Source: Candidatus Poribacteria bacterium (GTDB taxonomy: Bacteria > Poribacteria > WGA-4E > WGA-3G). From it: DNA of 64,000 bases. The number at the start of each line of letters is the position of its first letter. Position 1 is the stretch's first letter. A program made the position numbers and the translations under genes. Positions 4,388 through 51,342 of this stretch are shown here, piece after piece. The notes under the pieces are model-generated. The model was not told where the DNA came from. It did not search any database and saw only the letters and a program-made list of their open reading frames with translations. The stretch is from contig CBDBPM010000002.1 in NCBI GenBank assembly GCA_965208735.1, positions 733,145 to 797,144 on the forward strand, read 5' to 3'.

Positions 4388-5104
4388 ATGAAATTGCAAC
4401 TACCAACACTTATTGCTGTCTGCCTTGCTATTCTCCTCATTGGCGGCATCTACTTTTTCTTCGGAGACAAGTCGGAGTTGGGCATCGCTGTCAATTTGGA
4501 AAGTGAAGAGTTCAAACAGATTCGCACGCATGCCACAGATGCCTTCAACGCTGGACAATATCAACAAGCCATTGAGCTTTACACCCAAGCAATGAAGATG
4601 CGTCCTGAAAACGCCGAAATCTTTAACGACCTTGGAGCCGTGTACTACAAACAAGGGATTCAATATGCTGGACCGAATTGGCCCTCATGGGAAAAGGAAT
4701 TGATAGACGAAACACCTGACGCAGCGGTGGCAGAACTCAAAATCGCTATTGATAAAACAGCATCCGGCGCAATCGTGTTCAAAACACGCGATGAAGCCGT
4801 CGCTGACGCTATCGAAGATGAGGCGAAACAATTCGGCGGTCAAGTGTACAGGCAGCGTTGGGAAAATGAAATCACGCTTAATATTCTCATTGGAGAAACA
4901 AAAACCTATCTGTTGCGAGCCAGAGATAACTATCTCTATGCCTTAGATTTGAAACCGACACATAGCGTTGCCTATCGCAACCTCGGTTCGTTCTTTATGA
5001 AGGTCGGTAAAACCGATACGGCAATCGATTACCTTCAAGAAGCACACAAATTAGATCCACGTGATGCCGAGTTGGAAGAATACCTTAACCAATTCAGGAA
5101 ATAA
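4388..5104 (+). CDS. TPR-repeat protein with N-terminal transmembrane anchor
   Basis: 238-aa ORF with an N-terminal hydrophobic helix (LPTLIAVCLAILLIGGIYFFF) and TPR-like repeats (AIELYTQAMKMRPENAEIFNDLGAVYYKQG; AIDYLQEAHKLDPRDAE). Confidence 0.6.
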   Translation: MKLQLPTLIAVCLAILLIGGIYFFFGDKSELGIAVNLESEEFKQIRTHATDAFNAGQYQQAIELYTQAMKMRPENAEIFNDLGAVYYKQGIQYAGPNWPSWEKELIDETPDAAVAELKIAIDKTASGAIVFKTRDEAVADAIEDEAKQFGGQVYRQRWENEITLNILIGETKTYLLRARDNYLYALDLKPTHSVAYRNLGSFFMKVGKTDTAIDYLQEAHKLDPRDAELEEYLNQFRK

Positions 5105-5153
5105 AGCACAAAAATTCTCTCTCTACATCACAGTTTGAGGGAGGAAATCGCTT

Positions 5154-8810: not shown

Positions 8811-8903
8811 GTTATAAGTTATAAGTTATAAGTTAAGAGCGAAAACCGTCTTTGTGAAGTTTACCTCTTAACCAACCACTTATAACTTCTTAACCAACAA
8901 CTA
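8805..8903. repeat. Copy 1 of an intergenic hairpin element: (GTTATAA)x4-GTTAAGAG, a 25-nt loop, then CCTCTTAAC, ending CACTTATAAC..CAACAACTAC
   Basis: A tandem heptamer GTTATAA repeated four times overlaps the TAA stop of the cyclase gene. The 9-bp inverted repeat gttaagag/ctcttaac forms a stem around a variable loop. The same architecture with a different loop occurs at 12451..12550. Confidence 0.6.
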
Positions 8904-8919
8904 CTAAAAAGGAAAAATT

Positions 8920-9780
8920 ATGAGACTTGGCGTCGTTGGACTCTGTAGCGACTTCCGCACACTTACATCAGATGAAATTGCAAACATCAAGGCTTTGGAA
9001 TTTACTGGATTAAGCTTCCATTTCCGCAGCGCGGAAATCCCGTCTGTCCCACCAGATGCTTGTAACCGCTGTGTGCAAATGTTAGAAGCAGCAAAACTCG
9101 ACCTCGTGCAATTCGGCATAACTTACGACGAATGCCTCTTTCATCCAGATGCCGCTGTCCGAGAAGCCGCTATTGAAAGCGCCCAACGTGGTATGGCAAC
9201 CGCTGTCTCGCTCAACGCACACCACTATCTGTTCCGTCCCGGCAGTCTCAATCCCGATGGTGCTTGGACTTCTCACCGGGATAACCATCTCCCAGAATCG
9301 ATGGAACGGTTGATTGAGACCTTGAAACCGATAGCAGCACACGCCGAACGACAGGAACTAACGCTTGTTATGGAGACGCACGCCGTTTCCATTATGGGTT
9401 CACCAGAAATCTGCCGCGAAATCGTAGAGCGGGTCGGTTCCGATCGGCTCCGCATCGTCATGGATTTTGTCAACCACTTTCAAACGCTCCGGCAGGTCTA
9501 TGACAGCGAAGACCGCCTGAACCACATTTTTGACGTAATGGGACCCGTCGCACCGATGGCGCATATTAAAGACATCAGCGTTCAGAACGGTTTGGTACTC
9601 CACCTCAATGAAGAGGTCCCCGGCGAGGGTGAATTGGCACTCGGTATAGCACTAAAACGTTTCGACGCACTCTATCCGGACGGCTACGGATTAATAGAAC
9701 ATCTACCGGCGGAGAAAATTCCGCTCGCGAATCGTAATGTTCGGCAAATCGCCGCCGAAAACGGAGTTCATATCTACTAA
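8920..9780 (+). CDS. Sugar-phosphate isomerase/epimerase (xylose-isomerase-like TIM-barrel family)
   Basis: 286-aa ORF. The pattern LVMETHA..LRIVMDFVNHF with conserved E/D/H metal ligands is typical of AP-endonuclease-2/xylose-isomerase-like TIM barrels. Assignment is by motif only. Confidence 0.5.
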   Translation: MRLGVVGLCSDFRTLTSDEIANIKALEFTGLSFHFRSAEIPSVPPDACNRCVQMLEAAKLDLVQFGITYDECLFHPDAAVREAAIESAQRGMATAVSLNAHHYLFRPGSLNPDGAWTSHRDNHLPESMERLIETLKPIAAHAERQELTLVMETHAVSIMGSPEICREIVERVGSDRLRIVMDFVNHFQTLRQVYDSEDRLNHIFDVMGPVAPMAHIKDISVQNGLVLHLNEEVPGEGELALGIALKRFDALYPDGYGLIEHLPAEKIPLANRNVRQIAAENGVHIY

Positions 9781-9906
9781 TTTCTTTTCGGAATAGTTAT
9801 TGGCGTATCAGCAGTAAAAAAGGCATCTGGTGAACTAATATTTTTTACTGAAGGTTTCCGACAACTGACTGCTGATAGTTTCCAACACGAAAAGGGGGAT
9901 TGACAC

Positions 9907-12471
9907 ATGCTTAAAAACATTAGGATAGCACACCTTCTAAGACATCTCTTCCGATCCTATATGCTGACCGTTATTTTTCTGACGTTCACGCTTTTGTCTG
10001 TAGCGTTTGGACAAGACGATACGATTACTGAGACGGTCACAGAAGGGACACGTAATATTTGGACGCAGGTCAAACTCTACGGTGGCGTGGTCTTAATCAT
10101 CTTTCTTTTTAGTGCTTTCTTTTATCTCCTAAGACTCTTTCAGAAAGACAAACTCTTGAAGACACTCCTTAACAAATATGTCGTCTTTCAGATGAAGGAG
10201 GAGAACAGACGTTACCGAGGCACAATGCGGCTTGAGATCTCAGGCATGGAAATTATCTCCGAGGAATCCCGACAGCGCGGGCATGCCCCGAGTTATATCT
10301 TTAATTCCAAAGAACGTGAAGAACAAATTGTCGCATACATCCGCTACCACGATACGATGAACGAGCGCGAACTACGGGAACGTTCGTGGGAACTTGAGCG
10401 GGTCTACCATCCGCCATTTATCTACAAAATACGGCGGAAAATCCGAAATATGTTCGTCGCCCTCAGAGAAGCCTCAGCAAATGCTATCCGTATGGTGATG
10501 CAAAGCGTCAAAAGTGGTATCGGTGGACGATTTGAAGACTACAATAGAGTATACCAACAAACGGTCGACGCAAAGAAAGGCGAAGGAGATATAACAGGCA
10601 TCGATAGGTTAGACGATTCTACCGCCCACTTGCAGGAACAGGAAACCTATGAACGTCTAATTGAACGCTTGGTCGGTACCCGGATCAAAGTCCGCACGGA
10701 GACCGGAGAATACACCGCTATCCTCAAAGACTATAATCACAAGCATATCGCATTGATGGATGTGAAAGATGGCGACAACAACGGTTACAGAGATCATTGG
10801 AACTATGAACTTGAGTATAAGCAAGATATTAATGCACTGAACCGCCGCGATGACCGCGGCTTACGTGTACTAACAGAAGGCAACGATGAAAACGGCTACT
10901 CTCTCGTTTTTGAAAACAATACGCCTTACCAAATTCAACTTGGGCATGTCGTGCTGCACGACGGTGCCCCCCAATGGGCAAAGAACTTTGAATTCAAATA
11001 CCATATTCAAGCCTTCAGTGTTCAAAAACTTTCAATTGAACCGATAGCGCAACACAACGTAGGCCCGTTTCAACGGATTAGAGCGCGTGAGCGACTTACG
11101 ATCAGAAATTATAAAAAGATTAAACTCGATTTCCGCTCTTTCAGGGATGCTGATATCATTTTCCCGCGAAAATATTGCACTATTGTCGAAAGCGCAGAGA
11201 GATATCAACCCGAACTTTTCAGTTTAAGCGGCTTGACCGACACAATTCTGGACATGAGCGATACCGAGGACATCGCCATCGCAGACAAAGAGGGTAATCC
11301 GATCCACGGTATCAATGTTGTTCACGGATACGTGACGAACGTCAACGAAGAACGCATCGATTTGAAGACGATCGACACCAGCTACGGTCGGCGATGGGAT
11401 GTTGAAAATGCCTTCCGCCATTTTGATAATAAATTCCGTCATGGATTTCCGCTCCATAAAAGGCTCCTACCCATAAATCGCGCCAAGATTACAGCACACG
11501 CTTCTATCGTTGAACAGATACACAAGAACGCCGTTCGACACGAGGCGTTAGCACCGGTCGTTTATCCGGCACGCAGCTTAAATACAGCAGAACAGCGCGC
11601 ACGCCGCCGAAAGTTGATACGTAATCGCATCGTCGGCGGTATAAATGCTACCTTTAACACCAAGTTTTGGAAACCGAATGCTGGAGTTCCCAAGACACCC
11701 GGTGTCACGCGCGCAGAAGTCAAGATGGCAATGCCAATCAAACTTATGGCATTTACGGGTAATACCTCTACAGTCGAATTTCCGATCCTACAACGTTTTG
11801 AATATATTCAGGAACATCACATGATTTATAGGGAGGTCCCGGATCTACGCACCGATCGACTTCCGAAAACCGATATTTTGTGGATCGGCAACGGTGAAAT
11901 TTACAAATCTGGCTATCGACTGAACATTGATGCTGAACACCGGATTAAAAATTTCGTTAGCCAAGGTGGCGTTGCCATCGTTTCCGGACAAGATATCAAA
12001 ACCAGCACCAAACAGCGCCGTGGCACTGGATGGATACCGGAACCGCTCACCGGCATTGAATGTGACGAAACTTATGAGTTATTTCCCACATCACGAGGGA
12101 AACGTTCGCGTATCTTCCAATACCCGAATCCACTGAATGGAAACCACCACACCGATCCAGAGGCAATGGAGCAGCCTCTTATTCGACTCGATGATATGTG
12201 GCTCGATCCACTCGGGAAATGGACATCTCTCGCTAAAACCAATATCCCTGTAGCCGGACTGCCAAGTGACAGGTCTGAAAACGCATCCGCGCTGCTCCTC
12301 CTCCCCTTCCAAAAAGGGTTATACATCGTTACCAGTTTGAAGAATGAGACAGAAGAGGATGTACGCATCAACGACAAAATCATGGAAAATCTGCTCCATT
12401 TTTCCGTCAAATGGCTGGATAAACAACGTTCCCCGCGCAAGTTGGGAATAGTTAATAGTTATAAGTTATAA
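9907..12471 (+). CDS. Large hypothetical membrane-anchored protein (two N-terminal TM helices), function unknown
   Basis: 854-aa ORF with a good RBS (aagggggat). It has two hydrophobic helices near the N-terminus. The C-terminal region (ILWIGNGEIY..VSQGGVAIVSGQDI) is loosely reminiscent of a class-I glutamine-amidotransferase-like fold. No confident family assignment. Its stop codon sits inside repeat copy 2. Confidence 0.5.
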   Translation: MLKNIRIAHLLRHLFRSYMLTVIFLTFTLLSVAFGQDDTITETVTEGTRNIWTQVKLYGGVVLIIFLFSAFFYLLRLFQKDKLLKTLLNKYVVFQMKEENRRYRGTMRLEISGMEIISEESRQRGHAPSYIFNSKEREEQIVAYIRYHDTMNERELRERSWELERVYHPPFIYKIRRKIRNMFVALREASANAIRMVMQSVKSGIGGRFEDYNRVYQQTVDAKKGEGDITGIDRLDDSTAHLQEQETYERLIERLVGTRIKVRTETGEYTAILKDYNHKHIALMDVKDGDNNGYRDHWNYELEYKQDINALNRRDDRGLRVLTEGNDENGYSLVFENNTPYQIQLGHVVLHDGAPQWAKNFEFKYHIQAFSVQKLSIEPIAQHNVGPFQRIRARERLTIRNYKKIKLDFRSFRDADIIFPRKYCTIVESAERYQPELFSLSGLTDTILDMSDTEDIAIADKEGNPIHGINVVHGYVTNVNEERIDLKTIDTSYGRRWDVENAFRHFDNKFRHGFPLHKRLLPINRAKITAHASIVEQIHKNAVRHEALAPVVYPARSLNTAEQRARRRKLIRNRIVGGINATFNTKFWKPNAGVPKTPGVTRAEVKMAMPIKLMAFTGNTSTVEFPILQRFEYIQEHHMIYREVPDLRTDRLPKTDILWIGNGEIYKSGYRLNIDAEHRIKNFVSQGGVAIVSGQDIKTSTKQRRGTGWIPEPLTGIECDETYELFPTSRGKRSRIFQYPNPLNGNHHTDPEAMEQPLIRLDDMWLDPLGKWTSLAKTNIPVAGLPSDRSENASALLLLPFQKGLYIVTSLKNETEEDVRINDKIMENLLHFSVKWLDKQRSPRKLGIVNSYKL

Positions 12472-12550
12472 GTTATAAGTTAAGAGTGCTACTGTCAAAT
12501 GAAGTGCCTCTCTTAACTTATAACCAACAACTAACAACCTATAACTATAA
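12451..12550. repeat. Copy 2 of the heptamer-GTTAAGAG...CTCTTAAC hairpin element; it fills the whole 73-nt spacer between the convergent genes 9907..12471 and lpxK
   Basis: The element reads gttaata gttataa gttataa gttataa gttaagag, then a 24-nt loop, then ctctcttaacttataaccaacaactaacaacc. The stems are identical to copy 1 but the loop differs. It overlaps the stop codons of both flanking genes. Confidence 0.6.
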
Positions 12551-13831
12551 ATCCAACCACTCTAAAATTTTCTCAACGCCTTCTGTGATAACCAACGCGA
12601 CCTCAAGCACAAATATCGGCGGAAGCACGCCATCACGATGAGCGTGATCGCGGGACTTCCGAGGAAGCCCCCGGTTTCCCACAAACGCTTCCAATTTTTG
12701 CGCATCTTTTTGCGTTGTGACAATCAGATCCGCATGTACGGCTTGAAATACAGTGGCAATCCGCACGAAGTCCGCCTCGGTATAAACGTGATGATCGGGA
12801 TACGCCAACAATTCCACACTTTCTGCGGAACACCGCATGAGCGTCGTGACAAACGCATCTGGATTTCCGATCGCACAAACTGCGAGAAGCCGTTTTCCCT
12901 TAACCGCTTCTGAAGTCGAGAGGAAATCTGTTCCTTCCGAGTTTTCGGGGGATGCTATCGGAAGCACGCCATCACGATGAGCGTGATCGCGTGACTTCCG
13001 CAAAGGATAGAAATGGACCGGCTGGTGGACGCTCTCCAGAATCAGCGCATTCGGTGCCAATTGCCGCAATGCCGCTTTAGCGTCTCGTAACATGTCAACT
13101 GTATCTGTATGTGTTAATAGGATAACGTCCGCGCGTCGGAGCGCAGTAGGCGGTTCGCGCAAGCTCCCTACGGGTAAGAGTCGTTCTCTCGCAGCTTGCA
13201 GACCGATGGCTGAATGCGCGGGAACGGTGAGAATATCAACATCACGCGCAAGCTGCCGGTGTTGATATCCGTCATCCAGAAGTAGGACATCTACCCCAAA
13301 ACGCTCAAGCGCGACCTGTCCTGCCTGATAGCGTTGACTGCTGACAACAATCGGAATACCGCTGAGATGTTTCGCCATCATATATGCTTCATCGCCGCTC
13401 TCTTTTAAGGAAGCACATACCCTCTCACCGTCTGAGACAATAGTTACCTTTTCACGCGACTGGCGTTTATACCCGCGTAGCAAAATAGCGACGCGCACCT
13501 TCTCTTTTTCAAGGTGTTTCGCAAGCGCAATAACAGCAGGTGTTTTCCCCGTCCCACCCACAACGATATTACCTACACTGATGACGCGACACGGCAATCT
13601 TCGCGCTTTAAACAGACCGAGTTCATAAAACCGATTGCGTATCCAAACACTCGCGCCATAAAGCCAACTCAGCGGGATTAATGAGAAGCGTAGGGGGCTG
13701 GCAAGAAGCCTTTTCTGGAACGAGGCAAGATCGAAAGGGTCCGTGAGTTTCATAGCGTATAAAGTTTGCGAGTGTACTAAAGTCGCGAAATCTGTAAAGT
13801 TGAAAGAAGGTTTCTTAACAACTTTAGGCAC
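12545..13831 (-). CDS. lpxK: Tetraacyldisaccharide 4'-kinase (LpxK) carrying two in-frame 14-aa palindromic-element insertions
   Basis: 428-aa ORF with the P-loop GNIVVGGTGKTP diagnostic of LpxK. The C-terminal region (AIGNPDAFVTTL..YPDHHVYTEADF..LIVTTQKDAQKL) matches the LpxK C-domain. The peptide RKSRDHAHRDGVLP occurs twice, each encoded by a copy of the ~44-nt palindrome. Confidence 0.8.
   Translation of the reverse strand: MPKVVKKPSFNFTDFATLVHSQTLYAMKLTDPFDLASFQKRLLASPLRFSLIPLSWLYGASVWIRNRFYELGLFKARRLPCRVISVGNIVVGGTGKTPAVIALAKHLEKEKVRVAILLRGYKRQSREKVTIVSDGERVCASLKESGDEAYMMAKHLSGIPIVVSSQRYQAGQVALERFGVDVLLLDDGYQHRQLARDVDILTVPAHSAIGLQAARERLLPVGSLREPPTALRRADVILLTHTDTVDMLRDAKAALRQLAPNALILESVHQPVHFYPLRKSRDHAHRDGVLPIASPENSEGTDFLSTSEAVKGKRLLAVCAIGNPDAFVTTLMRCSAESVELLAYPDHHVYTEADFVRIATVFQAVHADLIVTTQKDAQKLEAFVGNRGLPRKSRDHAHRDGVLPPIFVLEVALVITEGVEKILEWLDL
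12617..12663. repeat. Copy B of the in-frame ~44-nt palindromic element (RPE-like), near the 3-prime end of lpxK
   Basis: The sequence cggcggaagcacgccatcacgatgagcgtgatcgcgggacttccgagg is a nested inverted repeat. It is about 95% identical to copy C, which lies 339 nt away (113 codons, same frame). Confidence 0.65.
12957..13000. repeat. Copy C of the in-frame ~44-nt palindromic element (RPE-like), inside lpxK
   Basis: The sequence cggaagcacgccatcacgatgagcgtgatcgcgtgacttccg is a near-perfect palindrome (cggaag..cttccg around atcacgatgagcgtgat). It encodes LRKSRDHAHRDGVLP in the lpxK frame. Confidence 0.65.
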
Positions 13832-13842
13832 TTTAGAGCACT

Positions 13843-15057
13843 TTACAGACTTTCTGCAGCATCTAACACCAATTCGGCAGTACGTTCAGCTGCACCGGCT
13901 GTGCCGAGCTGCGCATAAACAGCTTGAAGTGCCTCTCGTTGTGTTTCCCGTTTTTGTGGATGCTTCAGAAAATCAAGTGCCAACGTTGTCAAGGCAGTCG
14001 GTGTCAGTTCCGTCTGTAGCAATTCCGGGACAATGTCACCGCCAGCAATGAGATTGGGAAGTCCGCTTCGGTTTAAAGGGGTCAACGCCTTGATGATGTG
14101 CCAGTTGAGTGCTGCCGTACGAAAGAGTATAATCATCGGCGCACCGATACAGGTCGCCTCAAGCGTCGCTGTGCCGGAAGTAACCAGCAGCAGGGTTGAA
14201 GCACGCATCGCTGGATAGGTCTGATCTTCCACAATTTTAATGGACGGGATCTCAATACCCAACAATTCCTGCTGGTGTTCCGCAATGAGATCGCGTGAAA
14301 TTCCGGGGGCTAACGGGAGAATCCACTGTGCGTTCGGATAGACCTGAGCGATGTTCGCAGCGGCTTTTAGCATGACCGGAAAAATGTGGTGGATCTCGGA
14401 ACGACGACTCCCCGGCATCAATCCAATAACAGGTGCCTCCGGATCATCTTTCGTTTCAGATATGTTAAGGCTTTCGCGTGCTTCGTGTACCGTTAAGGAT
14501 GTCTGCGCGAAATCGACGAGCGGATGTCCTACGAATTCCGCGTTCGCACCTGAGGTTCGGTAAAATTCTGCTTCAAAAGGGAAGATCGCCGCGACGATGT
14601 TTGTCCACTTTGCCAGTTTCCGGGCACGGTTCGCACGCCACGCCCACGCCTTTGGTGGAATGTAATAGACAACTGAGACACCCTGCCGCTGCGCAAATTT
14701 CGCTAACGGCATATTAAACTCAGCAAAATCTACAAGGAGGAGCACATCAGGGTGTTCCTCACGGATACGTCGTTTCAGATATGCCTGTTTCCGTAGGAAC
14801 ATCGGTAGGACAGTGATGACATCGGCAAACCCCATGACAGCGGAATCTCGGATGTGAAGGTCAACCTTCACTGATACCGCTTCCATCTGGTCGCCACCCA
14901 TGCCGAAGAGAGTTATATCGGGACACAGTGCCTTGAGTTGCCGGGCAACATGAGAAGCATGCAGGTCACCAGAGGGCTCTCCAGCAACAATCATAACGTT
15001 TGGCTTTCGGTCTTCGGCTTTCGGCTTTCGGTAAAAAGATGTTTGTGGCATCAGCAA
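13843..15057 (-). CDS. lpxB: Lipid-A-disaccharide synthase (LpxB, GT19)
   Basis: 404-aa ORF whose N-terminal MIVAGEPSGDLHASHVARQLKA matches the LpxB signature (IxIVAGExSGD). It lies immediately upstream of lpxK and is co-directional with it. The start is ambiguous among TTG 15057 (RBS agggag), ATG 15051 and ATG 14994. A heptamer tandem repeat sits in its extreme 5-prime end. Confidence 0.8.
   Translation of the reverse strand: MLMPQTSFYRKPKAEDRKPNVMIVAGEPSGDLHASHVARQLKALCPDITLFGMGGDQMEAVSVKVDLHIRDSAVMGFADVITVLPMFLRKQAYLKRRIREEHPDVLLLVDFAEFNMPLAKFAQRQGVSVVYYIPPKAWAWRANRARKLAKWTNIVAAIFPFEAEFYRTSGANAEFVGHPLVDFAQTSLTVHEARESLNISETKDDPEAPVIGLMPGSRRSEIHHIFPVMLKAAANIAQVYPNAQWILPLAPGISRDLIAEHQQELLGIEIPSIKIVEDQTYPAMRASTLLLVTSGTATLEATCIGAPMIILFRTAALNWHIIKALTPLNRSGLPNLIAGGDIVPELLQTELTPTALTTLALDFLKHPQKRETQREALQAVYAQLGTAGAAERTAELVLDAAESL
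15004..15033. repeat. Heptamer tandem repeat (GCTTTCG-like, four units) at the 5-prime end or leader of lpxB
   Basis: The sequence gctttcg gtcttcg gctttcg gctttcg encodes RKPKAEDRKP if translated from the upstream start. Otherwise it lies in the leader of the ATG at 14994. Confidence 0.5.
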
Positions 15058-42080: not shown

Positions 42081-42439
42081 GAATGTTCGGCTAAATAAGT
42101 GTTGGTATGTCTATGGAACAGTATCAGCGTTCAATATAGAGTCTGGCCCACGGATACCATTTTGCGCCAATATCTGAAGATATTTACCTCTCTTCACGCT
42201 TGATGCTGTTTTTCCGGTAGAAATCCAATGGTAACTACTCTGACCTTCCAAATCTTCAAGGCTCCTCGCTGAATGTTTACGCCACCGCTTTAACCACTGC
42301 GATTTCGCTGTGACTTCCCTTACCTTACGCGTATTATCTGCCGGATGAACTTCAACATAGTGATAGCACCCAAAGCCTAAAGGCTTGGGCTTCGGTTTCA
42401 TAGCGACTGCGGTTTTCTCAGAGAGTCCACCGTCTTATT

Positions 42440-43730
42440 TTCGCTCCACCCGCGGGCGTTTCCCTGTAGTCTCCTATACTACAGGCATATCGTCAGGTGA
42501 CGGCTATCCCCGCCCGCAAAATGTTGATCGCAGCGTTGATGTCTCTATCGTGGTCTGAACCACATTCGCGGCATATCCACTGCCTGTCGTTCAATGTTAG
42601 GTTTTCGTTATGGAAACCACAATCCGAACACGGCTTCGTTGTAGGTGTCCATTGTCCGACTTGTTTGAAACGACGCTTATGTTTTTGACACTTATATTCC
42701 AATATCTGAACAAACTGGTAGAAGGAGAGGTCAGAAACTTTACGCCCCCACAGGCGTTTCATGCCATCAAGGTTCAACGTCTCAAGGAAAATGCTATCAA
42801 ACTTTTTACAAAGTTTAGAGGCAAGTTGCCAATGAAAGTCTTTGCGTTGATTCGTGATTTTCCGATAAAGGCGTGCGATTGCTCTCACACAACGCCACCA
42901 GCCATTAGAACCTTTGACTTTACGAGAAAGTTCTTTATTGAGAGACCGAAGTTTGTTCAAGGTGTGTTTCAAGGGTTGTGGGTGTTGTATTTTCTCACCC
43001 GTGCTCAGTGTCAAATAAGCGTCTTTCATGCCGAAGTCTGCCCCAACGCTTTTACCTGTTGTCGGCAGCGGTTTGAAATCTGTATAGGTTGTCGTTATGC
43101 ACAGCCAATAAGTCCCACAGTTGTCGCGTTTGATGGTGATATAACTGATAGTTCCAGGTTTCCACTGGCGGTGTTTATGAAACGTATACGGCACTTTATC
43201 AAACTGCCATTTACGCGTCTTCGGATTCCATTTACGAAAAGTCAGCGTGATACGATTATTTTTCAGAGACCATCCCGATTCTCCGGGGTAGGTGATAGAC
43301 TTAAACTTGTGGCACTTTTTGATTTTCGGTCTGCCGCCAAGTTTTTTGAAAAATCTGTCGTATGCTTTATGAATCCGTTTAAGTTCCTGCTGGATCGCTT
43401 GAGACGGCAATGCTTTCCAATGCGGGTGCGTAGTATCTTTCAAAACTTTCACGTGGTCGCACATACCCTCAAAGTTGACGGACGGCAACCCGTCTTTATG
43501 GCGTTGACGCTGCCACTCATGGAAGTAGACATGCACCTGCCACATATCGTCAAGCAGATTACCAATGCGAATTATGTTAGATTGTTTACCCAATGGATAT
43601 TTATACGTTTTCATGGACTATCAAGTATCAAGTCTTTAACCCCTAACGAGTGCGTAGGTAGACACGTAACCTTGCGATTACGCTCGTTATGTCTGCCAAC
43701 TTGATACTACACTTATACTACATTTTCAAT
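42440..43730 (-). mobile_element. IS200/IS605-family insertion sequence of the TnpB-only (IS1341-like) type, ~1.3 kb
   Basis: A single tnpB ORF is flanked by subterminal imperfect hairpins: the RE-side ctgtagtctcctatactacag at 42464..42484 and the LE-side aacgagtgcgtaggtagacacgtaaccttgcgattacgctcgtt at 43644..43687. No Y1 tnpA is present. The ends are approximate. Confidence 0.7.
42493..43614 (-). CDS. tnpB: TnpB (IS605 OrfB) RNA-guided endonuclease-like transposon protein
   Basis: 373 aa with a RuvC-like core and the C-terminal zinc finger CSDCGFHNEN..WICRECGSDHDRDINAAINI, characteristic of TnpB. Confidence 0.8.
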   Translation of the reverse strand: MKTYKYPLGKQSNIIRIGNLLDDMWQVHVYFHEWQRQRHKDGLPSVNFEGMCDHVKVLKDTTHPHWKALPSQAIQQELKRIHKAYDRFFKKLGGRPKIKKCHKFKSITYPGESGWSLKNNRITLTFRKWNPKTRKWQFDKVPYTFHKHRQWKPGTISYITIKRDNCGTYWLCITTTYTDFKPLPTTGKSVGADFGMKDAYLTLSTGEKIQHPQPLKHTLNKLRSLNKELSRKVKGSNGWWRCVRAIARLYRKITNQRKDFHWQLASKLCKKFDSIFLETLNLDGMKRLWGRKVSDLSFYQFVQILEYKCQKHKRRFKQVGQWTPTTKPCSDCGFHNENLTLNDRQWICRECGSDHDRDINAAINILRAGIAVT

Positions 43731-43824
43731 CAAACGTCACGTTCATTACAGATATACACACTTAGCGGGAAACCTATATCCCACAGCTAAAGCAGTGGGC
43801 TTTACGCCCGAATGCCCGTAAAAT

Positions 43825-44979
43825 TCAAAGTTTACTCTCCCACACAGCTTCTGTAACAACATCAGCAGATTTAGTACTAAATAGTGTCAACCCTCCCCAA
43901 TCCGATATTGCTTCATCTGAATCTTCAACATCTAAGGTTGAAATGTCTTTGACGCTCACAACACCATCCTGACGAGAGAAATAATAGGTTTTGAAAGTTT
44001 TTCCATCCAAGATTGTCTCTGTGAGATCATAGGAATAGGCATTTGCTTTCAAATCCAACAACTGTCTTAACCGTGCTGGTGCTTTTTTTGATTTAGCAAT
44101 GAGTCGAATTGCCCAGATGAGTTCTAAAATTTGGGCCGAATGCGTAGAAACAATAACTTTGTAGCCTCGCCTTAGAAGTTCTAAAAAAATAAGAAGCAGT
44201 GCTGAGATCGCTTGGGGATGTAACCCCATTTCCGGTTCCTCAATAATAACCCAGTCAATGCTATCTTTTTTCCGTACTTTCCCTGAAGGCATTAACCAAT
44301 ACAACCCCAATAGGAGCGGAGTGAATTCTCTCTGTCCAGTTGACCAGGTCATGAATGGGAGTTGAGTGCCTGCAACATCTAAGACAATACGTTTACGTAA
44401 TCCGGACCTATCCAACCTAATTTCAGCGTCTCCAAAGATGCTTTTTCCGATCGCGTCTCGGAGTGTTTTATTCATGCGACCCTCCTGCGGAAATATAGCC
44501 CCTGCACCTGACCCCAACCCTTTTTCCATCAACAACCGCAATTCCTCACTAAATTTCTTAACTACATACGGATCACTTGTCGAATAGTCTGTAAACGCGC
44601 GGGGCCACCCATCCTTAAGTGTCACAACCCGGTGTGCTGGCATCAGAAAGAGGGTTTCCTTTGTCTTTCGCCTCAATAACGCCCTTTGAGGCGTAAAATC
44701 TACTTTACTATCAACGGTGACTTTCGTCTCATCCTTGTCCCAGATTTTCTGCATCCCTTCACCCAAATAAAGGTACAAAAAATTCTCAGTATTTTTCTGC
44801 CAATCAAAACCGTGTTTTTTCAGCGTTTGCGTAATGTCGCCTGCATCTAAAATTAACTTCATGAGTTGGAGCAGAATGCTTTTTCCACTCGCTTGTTCCC
44901 CGACAAACACTGTTAGATCGCCAAAGGTGATGTCGGCTTCCGGAATTTGTCCGAGTGAAGTTAGTTTAAGATTTTTCAT
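43825..44979 (-). CDS. AAA_21/ABC-type ATPase (OLD/AbiEii/AriA/PtuA-like defense-associated ATPase family)
   Basis: 384 aa. Walker A is GEQASGKS, Walker B is DWVIIEEPEMGLHP and the H-loop is VIVSTHS. There is no fused nuclease domain. The gene is low-GC (~42%). Confidence 0.7.
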   Translation of the reverse strand: MKNLKLTSLGQIPEADITFGDLTVFVGEQASGKSILLQLMKLILDAGDITQTLKKHGFDWQKNTENFLYLYLGEGMQKIWDKDETKVTVDSKVDFTPQRALLRRKTKETLFLMPAHRVVTLKDGWPRAFTDYSTSDPYVVKKFSEELRLLMEKGLGSGAGAIFPQEGRMNKTLRDAIGKSIFGDAEIRLDRSGLRKRIVLDVAGTQLPFMTWSTGQREFTPLLLGLYWLMPSGKVRKKDSIDWVIIEEPEMGLHPQAISALLLIFLELLRRGYKVIVSTHSAQILELIWAIRLIAKSKKAPARLRQLLDLKANAYSYDLTETILDGKTFKTYYFSRQDGVVSVKDISTLDVEDSDEAISDWGGLTLFSTKSADVVTEAVWESKL

Positions 44980-45058
44980 AATTTTTCTACTCCATTTTCC
45001 AATATACTAACTGAAAAGTTAGTCCCGCAATCTATTCTAATGTTCATTTTACTACAAT

Positions 45059-45688
45059 TCAGATTTTTTTATAGACAAAATCCAGCCACTTGTCTTGTGG
45101 CGGTATAATTTCGGGTTTCGGCGAAAGCGGTGTCCAGTACGGCTTGAAAATGTGCCCCAGATCACTCTTCAATTCCCATGCATCCGCTGTTTCCTCTTGT
45201 GTGCTTAACAGAAAAAAATGCCTCGTTTTCTGTGCACTTAGGTTTTTATTTGGTACCCATCCCGAAATGTTAGCGTCAATGCATATGGGCTTGTGGAATT
45301 TGTCATATTCATATTCAATGTACGAAATGTGTGTGAAATCCTCCTGTGTGGAATGGTAATCAACAGTAAGTCCTTTGGGCAGCTTTCGCTTGTAGGGAAT
45401 TGCATTTAAGTTGGGTTCAATATAAACCCGCGTCGTTTCCGCTATGATTCTTTGGTTATTTTCCAATTCATTTTCAAAACAACCCAGATAGTTTTCAATT
45501 TCTACAAGTTGTAAGCCTGTCTCTTCATAAACTTCCCTCTTTACAGCAGTTTCAATATCCTCACCACTCTCAACAGTGCCTGCAGGAATCTGGACACCCG
45601 CAGTGGGATGTTTGAAAACAAGCAATTCTTTAACACCACACCTCTCACGTACTATAAAGGCAGTAACTTTTTGGATAATTTCATTCAC
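45059..45688 (-). CDS. NUDIX hydrolase with C-terminal extension
   Basis: 209 aa. The Nudix box is GTVESGEDIETAVKREVYEETGL (Gx5Ex7REUxEExGU). Confidence 0.7.
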   Translation of the reverse strand: MNEIIQKVTAFIVRERCGVKELLVFKHPTAGVQIPAGTVESGEDIETAVKREVYEETGLQLVEIENYLGCFENELENNQRIIAETTRVYIEPNLNAIPYKRKLPKGLTVDYHSTQEDFTHISYIEYEYDKFHKPICIDANISGWVPNKNLSAQKTRHFFLLSTQEETADAWELKSDLGHIFKPYWTPLSPKPEIIPPQDKWLDFVYKKI

Positions 45689-45700
45689 TCTGATTTCTCC

Positions 45701-46915
45701 TCAGTCTCCACTAACAAAGGCACGCCCGGGTTTTTCCTCAGCACGGAATACAGCGAGGTTACGTCCGTTCACGTCTTTGATGAGCCAGATATGTCCCGCA
45801 AACGTGTGCTGGTTCACAAAAGTATCAACAGCAATCTTACCATAGAATTTCTCTTCACCGCTACCATCTACCCAATAATAGGCGATCTCGGTTTCCTTGC
45901 CGCCATTCACGAAAATGATCGCGGTTTCGGTGTCGCTGCTGCCTGACCTTAGATTTGGAAGTAGACTCGGATCGTGTCCCTTCAAGTCTACCCATTTGCC
46001 ACCACCATCGCTGTCTGGGTTTTTTAATTGCTGATGGAATTCCGTCAACTCTATTAACTCACGGGGCCATTCAAACTTCGGAGACTTTTCAGGATCAAAC
46101 CCTTGGAGGTGTGAGAGAGGCAAACGAGTTACCGCCTGTGTGTACCGCCAGTCTTTATCGCCATATACCTCAGTCAGCAGTGCTGCAAGTGCCGGATCGT
46201 ATTCCTTCAATTTGTCGCGGGTATCAACATGGTTATGTTGGTCGTCGTTTGCGCGGTTCGTGTCAAACCAAGACTGCGTACCTTCAGCCCAATACTCCGC
46301 TCTGTTCGTAATAGCGTAGGTATTTTCCCACAACCCTTTTTCAACCGCAGCATCATATAGTATCTTAAGACGGTCATCGAAACTCGGATCCACTGTATTC
46401 AATCCCATCTGATGAATCGCATGTGCGAATTCGTGAACCAGAATGTTCTCAGTCGAATACGGGTCGCCTGTGTAATTAAGAAGGTTTTCCTCACCACAAC
46501 TGACAGCGGGTCTTGATGGCGTGGAACCCAAACCGCGTGCGCGTCGGTCCCAATAGTAGTCCGGTTGCAGATCGCTATGTTCGGGAATCTGTGTTGTCAG
46601 TTCGTTATACGCCATCACAGCAAAACGCACGTTATTTTTTGCAAGTGCCTGTAACACATCCTGACGATGTCCAACCATCTGTCGAATAAGCCATGCTGCC
46701 TCTTTCACGGCATAAGGATTCACCTTCGCTGATGCGACAACGGGCAATCCTTCCACATCAATCCACTGCACATAAAACGGATCCAAGTCAAAAGTTTTAC
46801 GAACATCATCCGGTAGAGGTATAGGTTCGGAAATATTGACGTTCTGCGCCATTGCAGTTAGTTGGATTGAGGAAAATAGTATGTAGATCGCGAAAATAGC
46901 AGTTAAATAGAGCAT
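45701..46915 (-). CDS. Secreted HExxH zinc metallopeptidase fused to a C-terminal VHL-beta-domain-like module
   Basis: 404 aa with a signal peptide (MLYLTAIFAIYILFSSIQLTAMA). The catalytic motif is VHEFAHAIHQ, with a downstream Glu/Tyr-rich segment (AEYWAEGTQSWF). The last ~70 aa (IIFVNGGKETEIAYYWVDGSGEEKFYGKIAVDTFVNQHTFAGHIWLIKDVNGRNLAVF) align with the human VHL beta-domain (IFCN..WLNFDGEPQPY..HSYRGHLWLFRD..GLLV), including the hydroxyproline-pocket Trp/Tyr/His/Trp positions. Confidence 0.6.
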   Translation of the reverse strand: MLYLTAIFAIYILFSSIQLTAMAQNVNISEPIPLPDDVRKTFDLDPFYVQWIDVEGLPVVASAKVNPYAVKEAAWLIRQMVGHRQDVLQALAKNNVRFAVMAYNELTTQIPEHSDLQPDYYWDRRARGLGSTPSRPAVSCGEENLLNYTGDPYSTENILVHEFAHAIHQMGLNTVDPSFDDRLKILYDAAVEKGLWENTYAITNRAEYWAEGTQSWFDTNRANDDQHNHVDTRDKLKEYDPALAALLTEVYGDKDWRYTQAVTRLPLSHLQGFDPEKSPKFEWPRELIELTEFHQQLKNPDSDGGGKWVDLKGHDPSLLPNLRSGSSDTETAIIFVNGGKETEIAYYWVDGSGEEKFYGKIAVDTFVNQHTFAGHIWLIKDVNGRNLAVFRAEEKPGRAFVSGD

Positions 46916-46946
46916 AGGATAGTCCCACTTAGTATCAGAAACTGTT

Positions 46947-47924
46947 TTATTTTGATTCTCGAAATAGAAGCATCTGAACAGATTCCTGGTTGATTGGATT
47001 TAAGGTGTCTCCCTTTTCGGAAATGTAGGTGCTGATGCAACGTGCAATGTACTCTGCCTGTTTCACGGGTACAGCATTCCCAATCATCTGCTCCAAATTG
47101 GTTTTCGATCCAGTGAAACGAAAGCCTTTTGGAAAGGTCTGGAGATAACTTCGTTCTAAAGTTGTGAGCGGACGCACTTTTTCTGAAATTGGAGCAGTAT
47201 CCTTTGGATGTATTTTATACGTTTTGGGAATTGGACGGTTAACCCCTCTCACTGTTGGACTTGGTTCATCAATGCTAAAGACTGCACGGCGACTATAATT
47301 GCGTGGATGTCGATAATAGTGGGCAACGTCGAGACTATCCCCCAAGTAATCACGCACACTCATCGGTTTGGTAGTCAGATTGTTATCCAGATAACTCGCG
47401 AGAGATCTGCTATCCACAGAGATAGATAGTCCCAATTCACCAACAAGAAAAAGCCGTTTCCGTCTTTGTGGAACACCACACTGATTTGCGTCTAAAATTC
47501 GCTGTGTTAGTGAATATCCTGCGCTTCTTAAAATTTCACCAGCACTACGATATCGCTGACTTTTCACAGTTCTATCCACATTTTCCATGACAAACCACTT
47601 CGGTTTTGTCTGTGCGACAATCTGTGCGAAACTCACGGTCAGATCCGCTCTTCCTAAATTTTCGTCCCGTTTACCGGCATGCGAAAAATCTTGACACGGA
47701 GGTCCACCAATAATCATATCAAATTGATATGCGTTTAATATTTCTAAACTTTCTTGCCAATTGCCGAGATCTATTTTGTGTATGCTATGCCCAAAATTAG
47801 CACGATAGACATCAATAGCCGGTTCCCAATTATCAAAAGCGGCTACTGCTTCAAAGCCAGCATTTTGGAATCCGAGTGTCATACCACCACACCCGGCAAA
47901 GAGATCAATGAATTTCATAGACAT
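46947..47924 (-). CDS. dcm: DNA (cytosine-5)-methyltransferase
   Basis: 325 aa. Motif I is FIDLFAGCGGMTLGF and motif IV is GGPPCQDFSHAGKR (the PCQ catalytic Cys). The ENV motif is present. Confidence 0.85.
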   Translation of the reverse strand: MSMKFIDLFAGCGGMTLGFQNAGFEAVAAFDNWEPAIDVYRANFGHSIHKIDLGNWQESLEILNAYQFDMIIGGPPCQDFSHAGKRDENLGRADLTVSFAQIVAQTKPKWFVMENVDRTVKSQRYRSAGEILRSAGYSLTQRILDANQCGVPQRRKRLFLVGELGLSISVDSRSLASYLDNNLTTKPMSVRDYLGDSLDVAHYYRHPRNYSRRAVFSIDEPSPTVRGVNRPIPKTYKIHPKDTAPISEKVRPLTTLERSYLQTFPKGFRFTGSKTNLEQMIGNAVPVKQAEYIARCISTYISEKGDTLNPINQESVQMLLFRESK

Positions 47925-47939
47925 TTGTGTTTTTACCTT

Positions 47940-49025
47940 TTACATGAAAAGTTCAGGAGAATTAGCCAGAATCGCATCAAATCGTCTTTCTGGACTAAGC
48001 ATCTTTTCGCCCTGCCCTAAGATAATGTTTTTGATTTCAGTTTTTTTGATTCTTGGATGTGTGAGTTCTACACAGGACATATAACGATGAGTCTTTCTTC
48101 CACTCAAGGCAAAGGCTTTGTCTGTTTGTCTCGTAAATCCAACACTAACGGTCTGTGGGTCAATTTTTCCATCTGTGGCAAAGTCAGAAAGCATTTTCAT
48201 GACCCACAAAACTGACCGTTTTGCTCGTGAGAATTCTTTAGAACGCCCTTGCTCAACTGTATCTAATAGCAGCTTCGCAAAAGCGAACGTACTCCAGACA
48301 AAAACATCCAAACAATTTTCATGAAGTTGAGCAGATTTCCCAACAGTCTTCCAAATAGGCTGTATCACTAATGGAATCTGATTGTCCATTTCCGCGACTA
48401 ACAAATGCTTGATAATTTGGATAATATCGGGTATTCTTTCCAACATGCTATTTTCCGAACGCCAGTCAAAGTTACTTTGAAAAATCGGGCGTAGAGCCTC
48501 AGAAAGTTCGTTTTGACGTTCAGCGTACCGCTTAGCAATTTCGAGTGTTAAATGGATAATCGTATTCGGACGCACTACAAGTTCACAACTGTACTCTTCT
48601 TCAGGAAAGTTGCAAGTCGAATTATCAGGCAAAGCCGTTAACTTAATCTCTAACGCCCGTAACCAAGGATTTTCAGAGTCAGAATTATCCATTACCACTA
48701 AATCAATACGAGGTAAAGTTCCTTTGACAAATTGCTGATTTTGTCCATAAGTATACTCAAAAGCAAAGTAAATATCTTCAGAGTCATACGCATGTCCAAA
48801 TATAGAGTTTACATCAATCTTCTCAGGAACGATATTCCAATTCTGACCTAAAGCCAAGTAAACAGGAGCGATATTTTGGCTTTGCATATAACATAATAAG
48901 GCGATAGGGAAACAGTTATTAAAGCTGTTCTTTCCCCATGCTTTTGCTTGACTGAAGTCTTTGTTTGTGTTCGATTGGTTCAACCCAAACAAAGCAGGCG
49001 TATTACTTGTTGATGTGAATTTCAT
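47940..49025 (-). CDS. Putative Type II restriction endonuclease (PD-(D/E)xK) partnered with the C5-MTase
   Basis: 361 aa. It lies immediately upstream of the MTase and is co-directional with it (15-nt gap). The candidate catalytic motif is PRIDLVVMD..LRALEIKL (D...E-x-K). No other family match is visible by eye. Confidence 0.5.
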   Translation of the reverse strand: MKFTSTSNTPALFGLNQSNTNKDFSQAKAWGKNSFNNCFPIALLCYMQSQNIAPVYLALGQNWNIVPEKIDVNSIFGHAYDSEDIYFAFEYTYGQNQQFVKGTLPRIDLVVMDNSDSENPWLRALEIKLTALPDNSTCNFPEEEYSCELVVRPNTIIHLTLEIAKRYAERQNELSEALRPIFQSNFDWRSENSMLERIPDIIQIIKHLLVAEMDNQIPLVIQPIWKTVGKSAQLHENCLDVFVWSTFAFAKLLLDTVEQGRSKEFSRAKRSVLWVMKMLSDFATDGKIDPQTVSVGFTRQTDKAFALSGRKTHRYMSCVELTHPRIKKTEIKNIILGQGEKMLSPERRFDAILANSPELFM

Positions 49026-49085
49026 CGAAACTGTCCTTCCAGATATCTCAATTCCTGACAGACTAAACGCATCTGCTATATCAGA

Positions 49086-49790
49086 TCATCCATTATCAGA
49101 ATCTCTCCTATAAGTCTTTGATTTTGCGTGGCGGGATTTGCTTCTTAAACTCCATACACTGCCAATAAAATTGCTGTCAATAAGTTGTTTAAAAATTCCA
49201 TGGCGTGCCGATGGTTTGATTTCAAACCTATCTGTTTCGGATGAAAACGGATAAATGTCGGCTTCACCCGCCAGCACAGCGAAAAATTTACCGCGGTTAT
49301 TCGGAAGAAAAATGGGGCCTTCCCATTCCAAATATTCAACTACTGGTGGTGTGCTCGGGATAGACATTCTCGCGTCAAGGAGAACTTCCCTCCTGTCCTG
49401 TAGTTTGATAGAAGCAGGAAGTTTGTTTTCGAGTCGGATGTCACCTTGAAAATATGGGGTCCGAAAGAATACCCTTTCCGAGAAAGCCAAGAGTCTGGAC
49501 GAGTTAAATGCGTATGGCAAATAGTAGCCGTCCAGACTCGCTCCGTTTTCATCAAGGCAAACGCCAACAGCGATAACAAACTCCCTAAACTTGAATCCCC
49601 TCCACTTCGTATCTATCGCACTGAGTAGGAGAATTGCCTTATCCGCTTCGTGGTATGGGAAAAGACCCTCCTCGCGTAATACGGCTTCCCAGAACGATAA
49701 ATCCGCTGTGCCGTGGAGGGTTACCTCTTTGACATTATAAAGATCCGCGACGTATTGGATAGAGGTGTTTGCAACTGTACTTTTAGGCAT
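49086..49790 (-). CDS. Hypothetical protein
   Basis: The start ATG at 49790 overlaps the GH32 stop by 8 nt (MPKSTVANTS...). 234 aa. No recognisable motif. Confidence 0.4.
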   Translation of the reverse strand: MPKSTVANTSIQYVADLYNVKEVTLHGTADLSFWEAVLREEGLFPYHEADKAILLLSAIDTKWRGFKFREFVIAVGVCLDENGASLDGYYLPYAFNSSRLLAFSERVFFRTPYFQGDIRLENKLPASIKLQDRREVLLDARMSIPSTPPVVEYLEWEGPIFLPNNRGKFFAVLAGEADIYPFSSETDRFEIKPSARHGIFKQLIDSNFIGSVWSLRSKSRHAKSKTYRRDSDNG

Positions 49791-51342
49791 AGATGTCCTG
49801 CATCTGCCAAGCATCTAAGGATTTGAGTTCACAGGATTGTCCTTGTGAGCGCAACGACACACCGACACTCTCCGCTTTGTCAGGATAGACCCGCATCGCC
49901 ACACACTGCTTCCCGTTAGCGAAGACCTCTACCACACTCTTGTCAACGAATACGCGTAATTTGAGGGTTTCGCCTTGTGCAACAGAGATCGCTCCAGTTT
50001 CAGGGGCGCGTGAAAGGACATCCGGGGCAACTGACGCATACGACGAATCAATCGTTAGCAGGCTATCGCGCACGTTAACATCGGAATTTAGGTTGCGCAT
50101 GCCGCGTTCTCTAAAGAACGCAATGCGGGTGAATTCCTCTTTCTGCGGTGAACGGAGCACATTCAATTCAACCATCGGTGCGGACTTCGTATCGATTTCG
50201 AGTTCAAGCTCCATCGCATTGCCATTTATGCCTTCCAGTACAACCTCTTCGTTCGCGGGGAGTGTCATCGCATTGACATGCTGATGTTCATACCGCAACG
50301 ATTCAATATCACCAGCAGGCTCAATTCCGATCTCATCTCTGGAAAGGAGCGTCAAGCGGCGCGGCAATGTCATGATCTGATTCCAACCCTTAGTAGGTTT
50401 CGCCGGGTTCATATTATAGATAACGATCAGTCCACCGTTGCCATCAGGTGTTGCAGAAGGCGCGTGGACACCCGCAGGCGACGCAGCCCCGAAATTGTTT
50501 TTCGCACCCGCCGTCACGACGAACTTGTCGCGTTCAGTGTCATAATCACCAAGTAGATACTGTCCACCGCTCATGTGACTGAAGAAAAGGAGCATGTGCC
50601 TGTCGCCGATGGGCCAGAAATACGGACACGCACCATCGTCGCCGACCAATGTGAACATATCGTCTTCAACGAACGGGTGTAGATAGACCCAATTCGCTAA
50701 ATCCGCTGAACGGAGCAGAAAGTTGGCGCGAATTGGCTTACCGCCGGGACCGTGCGGGAGTGTGCCACCGGAAAGCGAATAATACATATCGTCTTTCTTC
50801 CAGATACACGGATCAAAGACGCGGTAGACCGGGGTCGTACCGTCGGCGTGCTGCGACGGGATGACCGCTTTGCCGGACACCTTCTCCCAATTCAGGAGCA
50901 ACGGATCACTCGACACTGCCACCATATTGCCGACAACCGTGCCATGATACATCGCTATCACACGGTCTTCTTCTACAAGCGTTGCACCGGAAAAACAGCA
51001 TCTTTCCGGATTCGGGTAAATTGCATACGGCAAATCGCGCCAATGGATGAGGTCATCACTGATTGCGTGCCCCCAATGCTGTCGTGTATCTTCAGGTGGA
51101 TACGCCTGATAAAAAAGATGCCAGCGTCCCTGCCAGAAACAGAGACCATTCGGATCATTAAGCATCGCTTCGGGGTTTATATAGTGATAAATCGGACGGT
51201 GCGGATCGCTTTCATACGTTTTCCGATAAGCGTTAAGCCGTTGCATCAGCGGATTCGTTTCTAACTCTGCCTCTTGCGCTTCCAGCGTTTCCGCAAACGT
51301 GTAGTACGGCACACGCGAGGTATAATCTTCGTTTGCCATCAT
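49783..51342 (-). CDS. Glycoside hydrolase family 32 (beta-fructofuranosidase / levanase-like)
   Basis: 519 aa. The GH32 blocks MLNDPNGLCFWQGRWHLFYQ, WGHAISDDLIHW and the RDP/EC-region equivalents are present, and a beta-sandwich C-domain follows. Confidence 0.75.
   Translation of the reverse strand: MMANEDYTSRVPYYTFAETLEAQEAELETNPLMQRLNAYRKTYESDPHRPIYHYINPEAMLNDPNGLCFWQGRWHLFYQAYPPEDTRQHWGHAISDDLIHWRDLPYAIYPNPERCCFSGATLVEEDRVIAMYHGTVVGNMVAVSSDPLLLNWEKVSGKAVIPSQHADGTTPVYRVFDPCIWKKDDMYYSLSGGTLPHGPGGKPIRANFLLRSADLANWVYLHPFVEDDMFTLVGDDGACPYFWPIGDRHMLLFFSHMSGGQYLLGDYDTERDKFVVTAGAKNNFGAASPAGVHAPSATPDGNGGLIVIYNMNPAKPTKGWNQIMTLPRRLTLLSRDEIGIEPAGDIESLRYEHQHVNAMTLPANEEVVLEGINGNAMELELEIDTKSAPMVELNVLRSPQKEEFTRIAFFRERGMRNLNSDVNVRDSLLTIDSSYASVAPDVLSRAPETGAISVAQGETLKLRVFVDKSVVEVFANGKQCVAMRVYPDKAESVGVSLRSQGQSCELKSLDAWQMQDIYA

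Follow-up and report, generated by a model that had tools for sequence, protein, structure and literature searches.

A 64,000-nucleotide stretch of a Candidatus Poribacteria genome (contig CBDBPM010000002.1 of assembly GCA_965208735.1, positions 733,145 to 797,144; hereafter, the window) carries a gene for an AAA_21-type ATPase which, sitting next to an insertion sequence (IS), has the appearance of a standalone defence component. We identify this ATPase as the A subunit of PDC-M56, a catalogued candidate defence system, whose partner gene B encodes a protein of predicted nuclease fold. Our reading, in which we are highly confident, is that B has here been split by the IS together with the loss of 200 bp, leaving behind an intact orphan ATPase and a system that is most likely inactive. 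A first-pass annotation, made from the letters alone, had found no adjacent nuclease partner and had suggested a novel two-gene module of the ATPase and the neighbouring NUDIX hydrolase, with loss of a partner through insertion of the IS as a fallback idea. The fallback turns out to be correct in substance, since the IS and the 200-bp deletion together destroyed B.

A split partner gene downstream of the ATPase

The first-pass annotation had proposed running the ATPase through PADLOC, and a search of PADLOC-DB indeed identified it as a full-length PDC-M56A (522 bits, E 1.9e-157; protein residues 1-379 aligned to model positions 1-378 of 382). The AriA, Old, GajA, NsnB and HEC-01A/02A models of the same database cover the C-terminal lobe of the protein only. 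PADLOC systems labeled "M" are multi-gene, and we therefore searched for a B component. Scanning one genome per GTDB species for homologs of the ATPase yielded 77 loci, of which 58 are from Candidatus Poribacteria, a group of sponge symbionts, and 19 from Cyanobacteria (Leptolyngbya), Chloroflexota, Bacteroidota, Myxococcota, Acidobacteriota, Actinomycetota and Proteobacteria.

In almost all of these 77 loci, an open reading frame (ORF) of ~150 aa begins at or overlaps the stop codon of the ATPase gene. Using a hidden Markov model and a strict criterion, we detected a B-type ORF directly downstream of A in 60 of the 73 GTDB loci with room for one; another 6 of the 73 possess a B-type ORF whose start is over-extended. 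When the locus of a close relative, L078 (see below), is included, B stands next to A in 67 of 74 loci with enough downstream sequence, and it is present in every non-Poribacteria locus where downstream sequence was available (17/17). B proteins from four phyla match PADLOC PDC-M56B at E values of 1e-21 to 2.5e-58. The pairing of A with B is conserved and involves translational coupling. Elsewhere, the ATPase pairs with a nuclease-like gene, the very situation that the first-pass annotation had named as speaking against its proposed module, and in the window this gene is broken.

Variants of the pair were seen as well. L053 harbors two tandem A-B pairs (6043-7886 and 8001-9604), and L052 shows a tandem duplication with two A genes and one B (6273-7424 and 8001-9610). 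In L046, it is the ATPase itself that is cut, at residue ~308, by insertion of a DDE_3 (IS630-like) transposase (9036-10046).

In the window, B is a split pseudogene. Searching with intact B proteins by tblastn, we recovered residues ~70-152 at positions 42362-42114, beyond the TnpB element, with 84-88% identity to close relatives, and this remnant matches PADLOC PDC-M56B at model positions 75-146 (E 1.1e-16). The supposedly missing neighbor is thus there in pieces: a 5′ stub (43828-43818) and a 3′ part (42359-42114) lie on either side of the IS. What the window lacks is an intact, adjacent and co-directional B, having retained just the 11-nt stub and the C-terminal remnant, with the IS between them and 200 bp gone.

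The comparison with an uninterrupted locus, likewise proposed in the first-pass annotation, was possible through L078, in which the genes are ordered GH32-hyp-ZnVHL-NUDIX-A-B-GFO-PhyH, B encodes 153 aa, and both the IS and a restriction-modification (R-M) pair of the window are absent. As its ATPase is 98% identical to that of the window, its B is intact and it has no IS, L078 provides an almost perfect empty site, with B where the window has the IS. Aligning the two loci, we see homology reach position 43818 (comprising the ATPase stop codon and the first 11 nt of B), break off for ~1,457 bp, and resume at 42361/42359. Conversely, 200 bp of L078 (positions 7163-7362/4) have no counterpart in the window. 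These lost base pairs encode residues 4-71 of B; S43 and D61, both invariant, are among them, as are the near-invariant G42, D47, R59, W60 and Y62. A merely divergent N-terminus of B can be ruled out, given that DNA homology to the 98%-related locus ends and restarts at precise points. The system is most likely dead here because the B of the window is missing half of its putative catalytic core, and the insertion must be recent because the 98%-identical relative still has B intact.

Both ends of the missing interval share a sequence signature. The IS sits 3′ of a TTAC in codons 3-4 of B, and L078 has TTAC at both deletion endpoints. The right end of the deletion falls exactly after a TTAC, one of five in the 509 bp of B gene and spacer, so that a chance coincidence of the endpoint has a probability of roughly 1-3%. 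Two routes to this arrangement can be envisaged. The IS could have entered at the second TTAC, with the interval between the two TTTAC motifs being lost afterwards; alternatively, an aberrant transposase reaction might have joined the two TTAC sites. The data favor neither route.

The inserted DNA itself, a stretch without counterpart in L078, L044, L001, L005, L008 and L012, bears the signature of an IS608-type, TnpB-only IS200/IS605 element. At the left junction, TTAC runs straight into GGGCATTCGGGCGTAAAGCCC (TTAC, then GGGC...), and a GC hairpin, GGGCGTAAAGCCC, follows right after the TTAC; a second hairpin, CCCAAGCC...GGCTTTGGG, marks the right end. With the junctions defined against the L078 empty site, there is no target-site duplication. 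Downstream of the ATPase stop codon, the left end is reached after 7 nt and the start codon of TnpB after 210 nt, which replaces the distance of ~85 nt given for the IS in the first-pass annotation. The 1.46-kb element holds no ORF besides that of TnpB, and because the Y1 transposase TnpA is absent, it is non-autonomous. It occurs as a single copy in the window. Searching Rfam, we obtained no matches in the window at gathering thresholds and none at E≤1 across the IS, including none to an omega-RNA. The element resembles IS608/ISHp608-type members of the IS200/IS605 family in its TnpB with OrfB_IS605 and TNB domains, in the hairpins by both ends, and in insertion 3′ of TTAC without duplication; it differs from them in the absence of TnpA and in the loss of 200 bp of flanking DNA up to a second TTAC. 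A related Poribacteria genome (L006, 5588-6067) contains a miniature element of ~480 bp between the methyltransferase and ZnVHL genes, with both ends of the window IS (72-80% identity) and no TnpB.

Protein B and its predicted fold

B belongs to a sizeable family. An exhaustive profile search returned 1,023 representatives at 50% clustering, 640 of them at E≤1e-10, and nearly all are stand-alone proteins of ~150 aa. Pfam searches with 4 and then 112 members gave noise only, leaving B without a Pfam family, and profile searches of the PDB with B produced no credible match. Five residues, namely, S43, D61, E74, H76 and K90, are 100% invariant across an alignment of 112 sequences whose columns average 32% identity.

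Using this diverse alignment, we obtained an AlphaFold2 model of B with a pLDDT score of 97.6 and a predicted template modeling (pTM) score of 0.92; it replaced an earlier, unusable model from a Poribacteria-only alignment (pLDDT 48.9). Foldseek comparison of the model to the PDB gave weak matches (best E 3.7e-3, probability 0.99, TM score of ~0.35 over ~90-100 residues), nearly all of which are to PD-(D/E)xK proteins: the nuclease domains of Cdn1, Can2 and Card1, the nickase N.BspD6I, VC1899, BamHI, SfsA, XisH, Hjc, RecU and Bse634I. Similarly, the BFVD matches are Mrr-type restriction endonucleases, VRR-NUC and ERCC4 proteins. In the model, core strand 2 opens with D61, and E74-x-H76 closes strand 3; both coincide with the places of the canonical PD...(D/E)xK residues, with the difference that a histidine replaces the lysine and that the invariant K90 is located on the following helix. 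B is accordingly predicted by modeling to adopt a PD-(D/E)xK restriction-endonuclease-like fold.

Might B use such a fold for something other than catalysis, as an adaptor, a regulator or an antitoxin-like partner? The weak statistics of the fold matches, the motif E-x-H in place of E-x-K, and the failure of Pfam and PDB profiles to reveal a family link at the sequence level would all be compatible with a non-catalytic B. We nonetheless consider this improbable, as the five residues have stayed invariant across 112 sequences of 32% mean column identity and, in the model, occupy the core positions canonical for metal binding and catalysis. Invariance of this sort is typical of an active site and less so of a scaffold, and we favor B as a putative nuclease.

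Apparently recurrent loss of B and the mosaic makeup of the locus

The window is not the only place where B has been lost. In six loci, the left breakpoint and the TTAC of B codons 3-4 are no more than 3 nt apart. Besides the window (43818, IS insertion), these are L019 with an internal deletion of B (9168); L026, L036 and L061 with B deleted up to the ribosome-binding site of GFO (9158-9171, 9158-9172 and ~9167, respectively); and L038 (9156), where B is replaced by 4.8 kb containing a TmtA defence gene. The latter (9599-13939) encodes a TmtA-type protein of 1,446 aa with a sacsin-like ATPase and a NucS_C nuclease domain. The breakpoints apparently represent at least four independent events. 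The first TTAC of B may be a hotspot for IS200/IS605 elements of the IS608 type; the clustering may also reflect survivorship bias, because deletions reaching into A would be lost.

The B-less loci also bear on the fate of the orphan ATPase. A is intact in L026 and L036 (8001-9158), and between these two species its ratio of nonsynonymous to synonymous substitution rates (dN/dS) is 0.117 at a dS of 0.33, a value we regard as no higher than the 0.09-0.10 of B-containing pairs. This comparison of substitution rates hints that A can be useful without an adjacent B. One could accordingly imagine that the ATPase of the window still functions, either by itself or together with a B-type effector from another locus, such that the IS rewired the system rather than killed it. 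The intact A of the window would fit this scenario, as would the dN/dS value of L026 and L036 if these have their clean B deletion in common, and Poribacteria genomes can hold further A-B loci or tandem copies. Yet the single ancestral deletion in L026 and L036 is not proven, the 64-kb window contains no second copy of A or B, and the validated analogue HEC-02 requires both of its genes. Moreover, the insertion is so recent that A may have lacked the time to decay. We therefore think it unlikely that the orphan is still functional and prefer an inactive system. A broader version of the same thought, which we entertain only tentatively and would not bet on, is that IS200/IS605 (TnpA/TnpB) activity acts as a recurrent switch which disarms or swaps a toxic effector, with the ATPase being effector-independent or acting in trans and remaining under purifying selection.

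Turning to the NUDIX hydrolase, we compared its position across genomes. A tblastn search of the 77 loci with the proteins of the window revealed two arrangements in Poribacteria, ZnVHL-NUDIX-A-B-GFO-PhyH, as in the window, and ZnVHL-A-B-NUDIX-GFO. NUDIX may therefore flank the A-B cassette on one side or the other, B coming to lie between it and A in the second arrangement. Looking up NUDIX orthologs, we found L083-L086 to have the arrangement of the window; in L079-L081, A-B is lacking altogether, and 65 bp separate NUDIX from GFO. Conversely, A-B occurs with no NUDIX nearby in the Poribacteria loci L003, L013, L020, L022, L029, L052 and L053. Outside Poribacteria, a Nudix-box ORF was found near the ATPase in none of 19 loci by a regular expression that detects NUDIX in 4 of 5 Poribacteria controls. 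As for the C-terminal extension of ~70 residues that the first-pass annotation saw in NUDIX, homologs are all 207-214 aa long, and Pfam aligns only residues 20-80 of the protein; its PDB relatives are generic MutT, Ap4A and RNA pyrophosphohydrolases aligned over residues ~6-84 only. A defence protein is not what these relatives suggest, and we rejected this assignment, the one PADLOC match of NUDIX being a weak one to PDC-S07 in the Nudix-box region (E 1.2e-4).

NUDIX is, in sum, a conserved Poribacteria backbone gene and a neighbor of the cassette rather than its partner. The two-gene module of the first-pass annotation, in which hydrolysis of a nucleotide or of ADP-ribose would be coupled to an ATPase sensor, could draw on the adjacent and co-directional placement of the two genes in the window and most Poribacteria loci, be it on either side of the cassette, and on the PDC-S07 match. 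Against such a module stand the loci that have one gene without the other, within Poribacteria and beyond, and the flip in gene order between clades, which in one of them puts B between A and NUDIX. Above all, the ATPase already has a conserved and translationally coupled partner in B. We consider the module extremely improbable and this false lead removed: there is no NUDIX-ATPase defence system here.

As for the other genes of the region (Table 1), much of the first-pass annotation stands. Six co-directional minus-strand ORFs do occupy positions 43825-49814 between the GH32 gene and the TnpB ORF; their GC content is low (0.428, compared to 0.52 in the left and 0.50 in the right flank); the ATPase has the Walker A motif GEQASGKS (residue 27), the Walker B motif IIEEPE (245) and the H-loop STHS (278), and NUDIX has its Nudix box (37-59); and Pfam, PADLOC and NCBIfam bear out the class of the ATPase as well as the identities of the R-M pair and the TnpB element. 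The R-M pair consists of a full-length HindVP-type endonuclease and an adjoining C5 methyltransferase on the same strand, separated by 15 nt, and qualifies as a type II R-M system. ZnVHL has a signal-peptide-like N-terminus and an HExxH core, with Pfam matches to M90 and the anthrax lethal factor (ATLF) below threshold; this protein may be a eukaryote-like effector with which a sponge symbiont interacts with its host. The protein hyp242 has no match in Pfam, NCBIfam or PADLOC and is the product of a conserved backbone gene, likely linked to GH32 function rather than to defence.

Table 1. Features of the window from the GH32 gene to the 3′ remnant of B.
Feature	Positions	Strand	Remarks
GH32 hydrolase gene	49783-51342		Right-hand bound of the six-gene region
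hyp242 (242 aa)	49086-49814	-	32-nt overlap with the GH32 stop; in many relatives, the ortholog comes directly after GH32
HindVP-family type II restriction endonuclease (361 aa)	47940-49025	-	Pfam RE_HindVP 427 bits, model 1-332/332; PADLOC REase_II E 8.7e-120
C5 cytosine DNA methyltransferase (325 aa)	46947-47924	-	Pfam DNA_methylase 234 bits; PADLOC MTase_II E 4e-146
ZnVHL (404 aa), HExxH metallopeptidase-like, with C-terminal VHL beta domain	45701-46915	-	Pfam VHL E 2.6e-5; conserved beside NUDIX across Poribacteria
NUDIX hydrolase (209 aa)	45059-45688	-	Pfam NUDIX 45.9 bits; Nudix box at residues 37-59
PDC-M56A ATPase, intact (384 aa)	43825-44979	-	PADLOC PDC-M56A; Pfam AAA_21 and AAA_15
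5′ stub of PDC-M56B	43818-43828	-	TTG AAT TTT AC = M-N-F-T...; start overlaps ATPase stop (TTGA); ends in TTAC target
IS200/IS605-family TnpB-only element (~1.46 kb)	42360-43817	-	Right-end boundary uncertain by 2 nt (42360-42362)
TnpB (373 aa), RNA-guided endonuclease of the IS	42493-43614	-	NCBIfam guided_TnpB 222 bits (cut-off 100); Pfam OrfB_IS605 and Cas12f1-like_TNB
3′ remnant of PDC-M56B (residues 72-153 and stop)	42111-42359	-	Inside mechanical ORF 42111-42401, whose ATG falls in the right end of the IS

What did not hold is the description of this region as one accessory island. The genes for hyp242, ZnVHL and NUDIX are conserved in many Poribacteria relatives and represent backbone. 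The HindVP R-M pair may be present among these relatives, reduced to an orphan methyltransferase, or absent, and the R-M pair and the A-B cassette each come and go independently of the other. A variable hotspot is formed by the slot between GH32/hyp242 and ZnVHL (window positions 46947-49025, compared to L078, L079-L081 and L083), which may contain the HindVP R-M pair, an orphan methyltransferase, a second GH32 (40% identity), a 1,562-aa SACS/NOV_C protein or small ORFs. We also rejected the idea of a single, horizontally acquired low-GC unit: backbone and accessory genes are interleaved, and GC content does not separate them (backbone: NUDIX 0.41, ZnVHL 0.48; accessory: endonuclease 0.39, methyltransferase 0.43, ATPase 0.43). 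The region is a mosaic of backbone genes, two separate defence modules (HindVP R-M and PDC-M56) and one IS. In Poribacteria, the PDC-M56 cassette occupies a slot that varies within a conserved locus for sugar metabolism (GH32 ... ZnVHL-NUDIX ... GFO-PhyH).

The candidate PDC-M56 and known ATPase-based defence systems

The surroundings of A-B in other genomes point to defence. An excellent example is given by L054 (Anaerolineales, 5081-13054), where an Hma system harbors A-B, with the HmaB methylase on one side of it and the HmaC ATPase on the other, a textbook case of embedding in a defence system. In Leptolyngbya, the neighbors of A-B include an HKD-Snf2 helicase, a PD-DExK protein and PDC-M28 components, and in other Poribacteria loci a type I HsdM, a type II methyltransferase or a Uma2 nuclease. 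The PDC models stem from the guilt-by-embedding study of Payne et al., in which 145 PDC candidates are listed (10.1101/2024.01.29.577857). There, PDC-M56 is cassette CAS_00181 (FAM_00005>>FAM_02395, count 47), and its ATPase family, FAM_00005, recurs in HEC-01, PDC-M07 and PDC-M55 (10.1101/2024.01.29.577857). Searching the literature for "PDC-M56", we found no text on it in any paper and, as its sole mention, one row of a supplementary table in which the partner family carries no annotation.

To this entry, the present analysis adds a widespread B family that has no Pfam model, a confidently modeled, putatively restriction-endonuclease-like fold and an invariant D...E-x-H...K signature, as well as a pair that is vertically maintained in a conserved chromosomal slot by many sponge-symbiotic Poribacteria species. 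Intact, IS-disrupted, B-deleted and empty-site loci make up a set of natural alleles for functional comparison. More generally, where a defence ATPase appears to stand alone beside an insertion sequence, one should check whether its partner gene has been split.

Several known systems combine an ABC-type ATPase with a nuclease. PARIS (AriA with the Toprim/DUF4435 protein AriB) resembles PDC-M56 in pairing an AAA_21/AAA_15 ABC ATPase with a separate effector, in PDC-M56 a putative nuclease. The ATPase of the window matches the AriA models over residues ~190-285 only, that is, in the C-terminal lobe (E 1e-18), and the effector fold differs; we found neither a full-length AriA nor a Toprim/DUF4435 match among the neighboring proteins. 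Septu (PtuA with the HNH protein PtuB) and OLD/Gabija (whose ATPase carries a fused C-terminal Toprim nuclease domain) fall into the same broad class of ABC-ATPase defence systems as PDC-M56A. With respect to Septu, the ATPase scores 34.5 bits with NCBIfam PtuA against a cut-off of 500, and there is no adjacent HNH protein. Its best sequence match in the PDB is the OLD-family nuclease 6p74 (E 8.6e-6). For OLD and the GajA of Gabija, the 384-aa protein has AAA_21/AAA_15/DUF2813 matches only, with no fused Toprim, and the Old and GajA models cover ~50-100 residues of it.

A further parallel is HEC-02, an ABC ATPase with a NERD PD-(D/E)xK nuclease, which has been validated and requires both genes (10.1101/2024.01.29.577857). 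As in A-B, an ABC-type ATPase is followed by a small protein of restriction-endonuclease fold (a predicted one in the case of B), and the ATPase of the window gives a partial match to HEC-02A (E 5e-11). This likeness is confined to the C-terminal third of the ATPase, and B differs from the HEC-02 partner in having no match to NERD or any other Pfam family and in its D...E-x-H...K in place of (D/E/Q)xK. By analogy to HEC-02, PARIS and Septu, A might serve as a sensor or scaffold, an ABC ATPase that senses infection or restrains the effector, and B would be the nuclease effector that cleaves nucleic acid once activated; an anti-phage role of the pair would follow the same pattern.

The closest match is PDC-M56 itself. 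The ATPase of the window fits the A model end to end, the B remnant and the B proteins of its relatives fit the B model, and gene order and strand are the same. The window departs from it in that B is split by an IS and 200 bp short, making the system incomplete. In other phyla, the pair is found within or next to known defence systems; in Poribacteria, the cassette is located in a conserved chromosomal sugar-metabolism locus.

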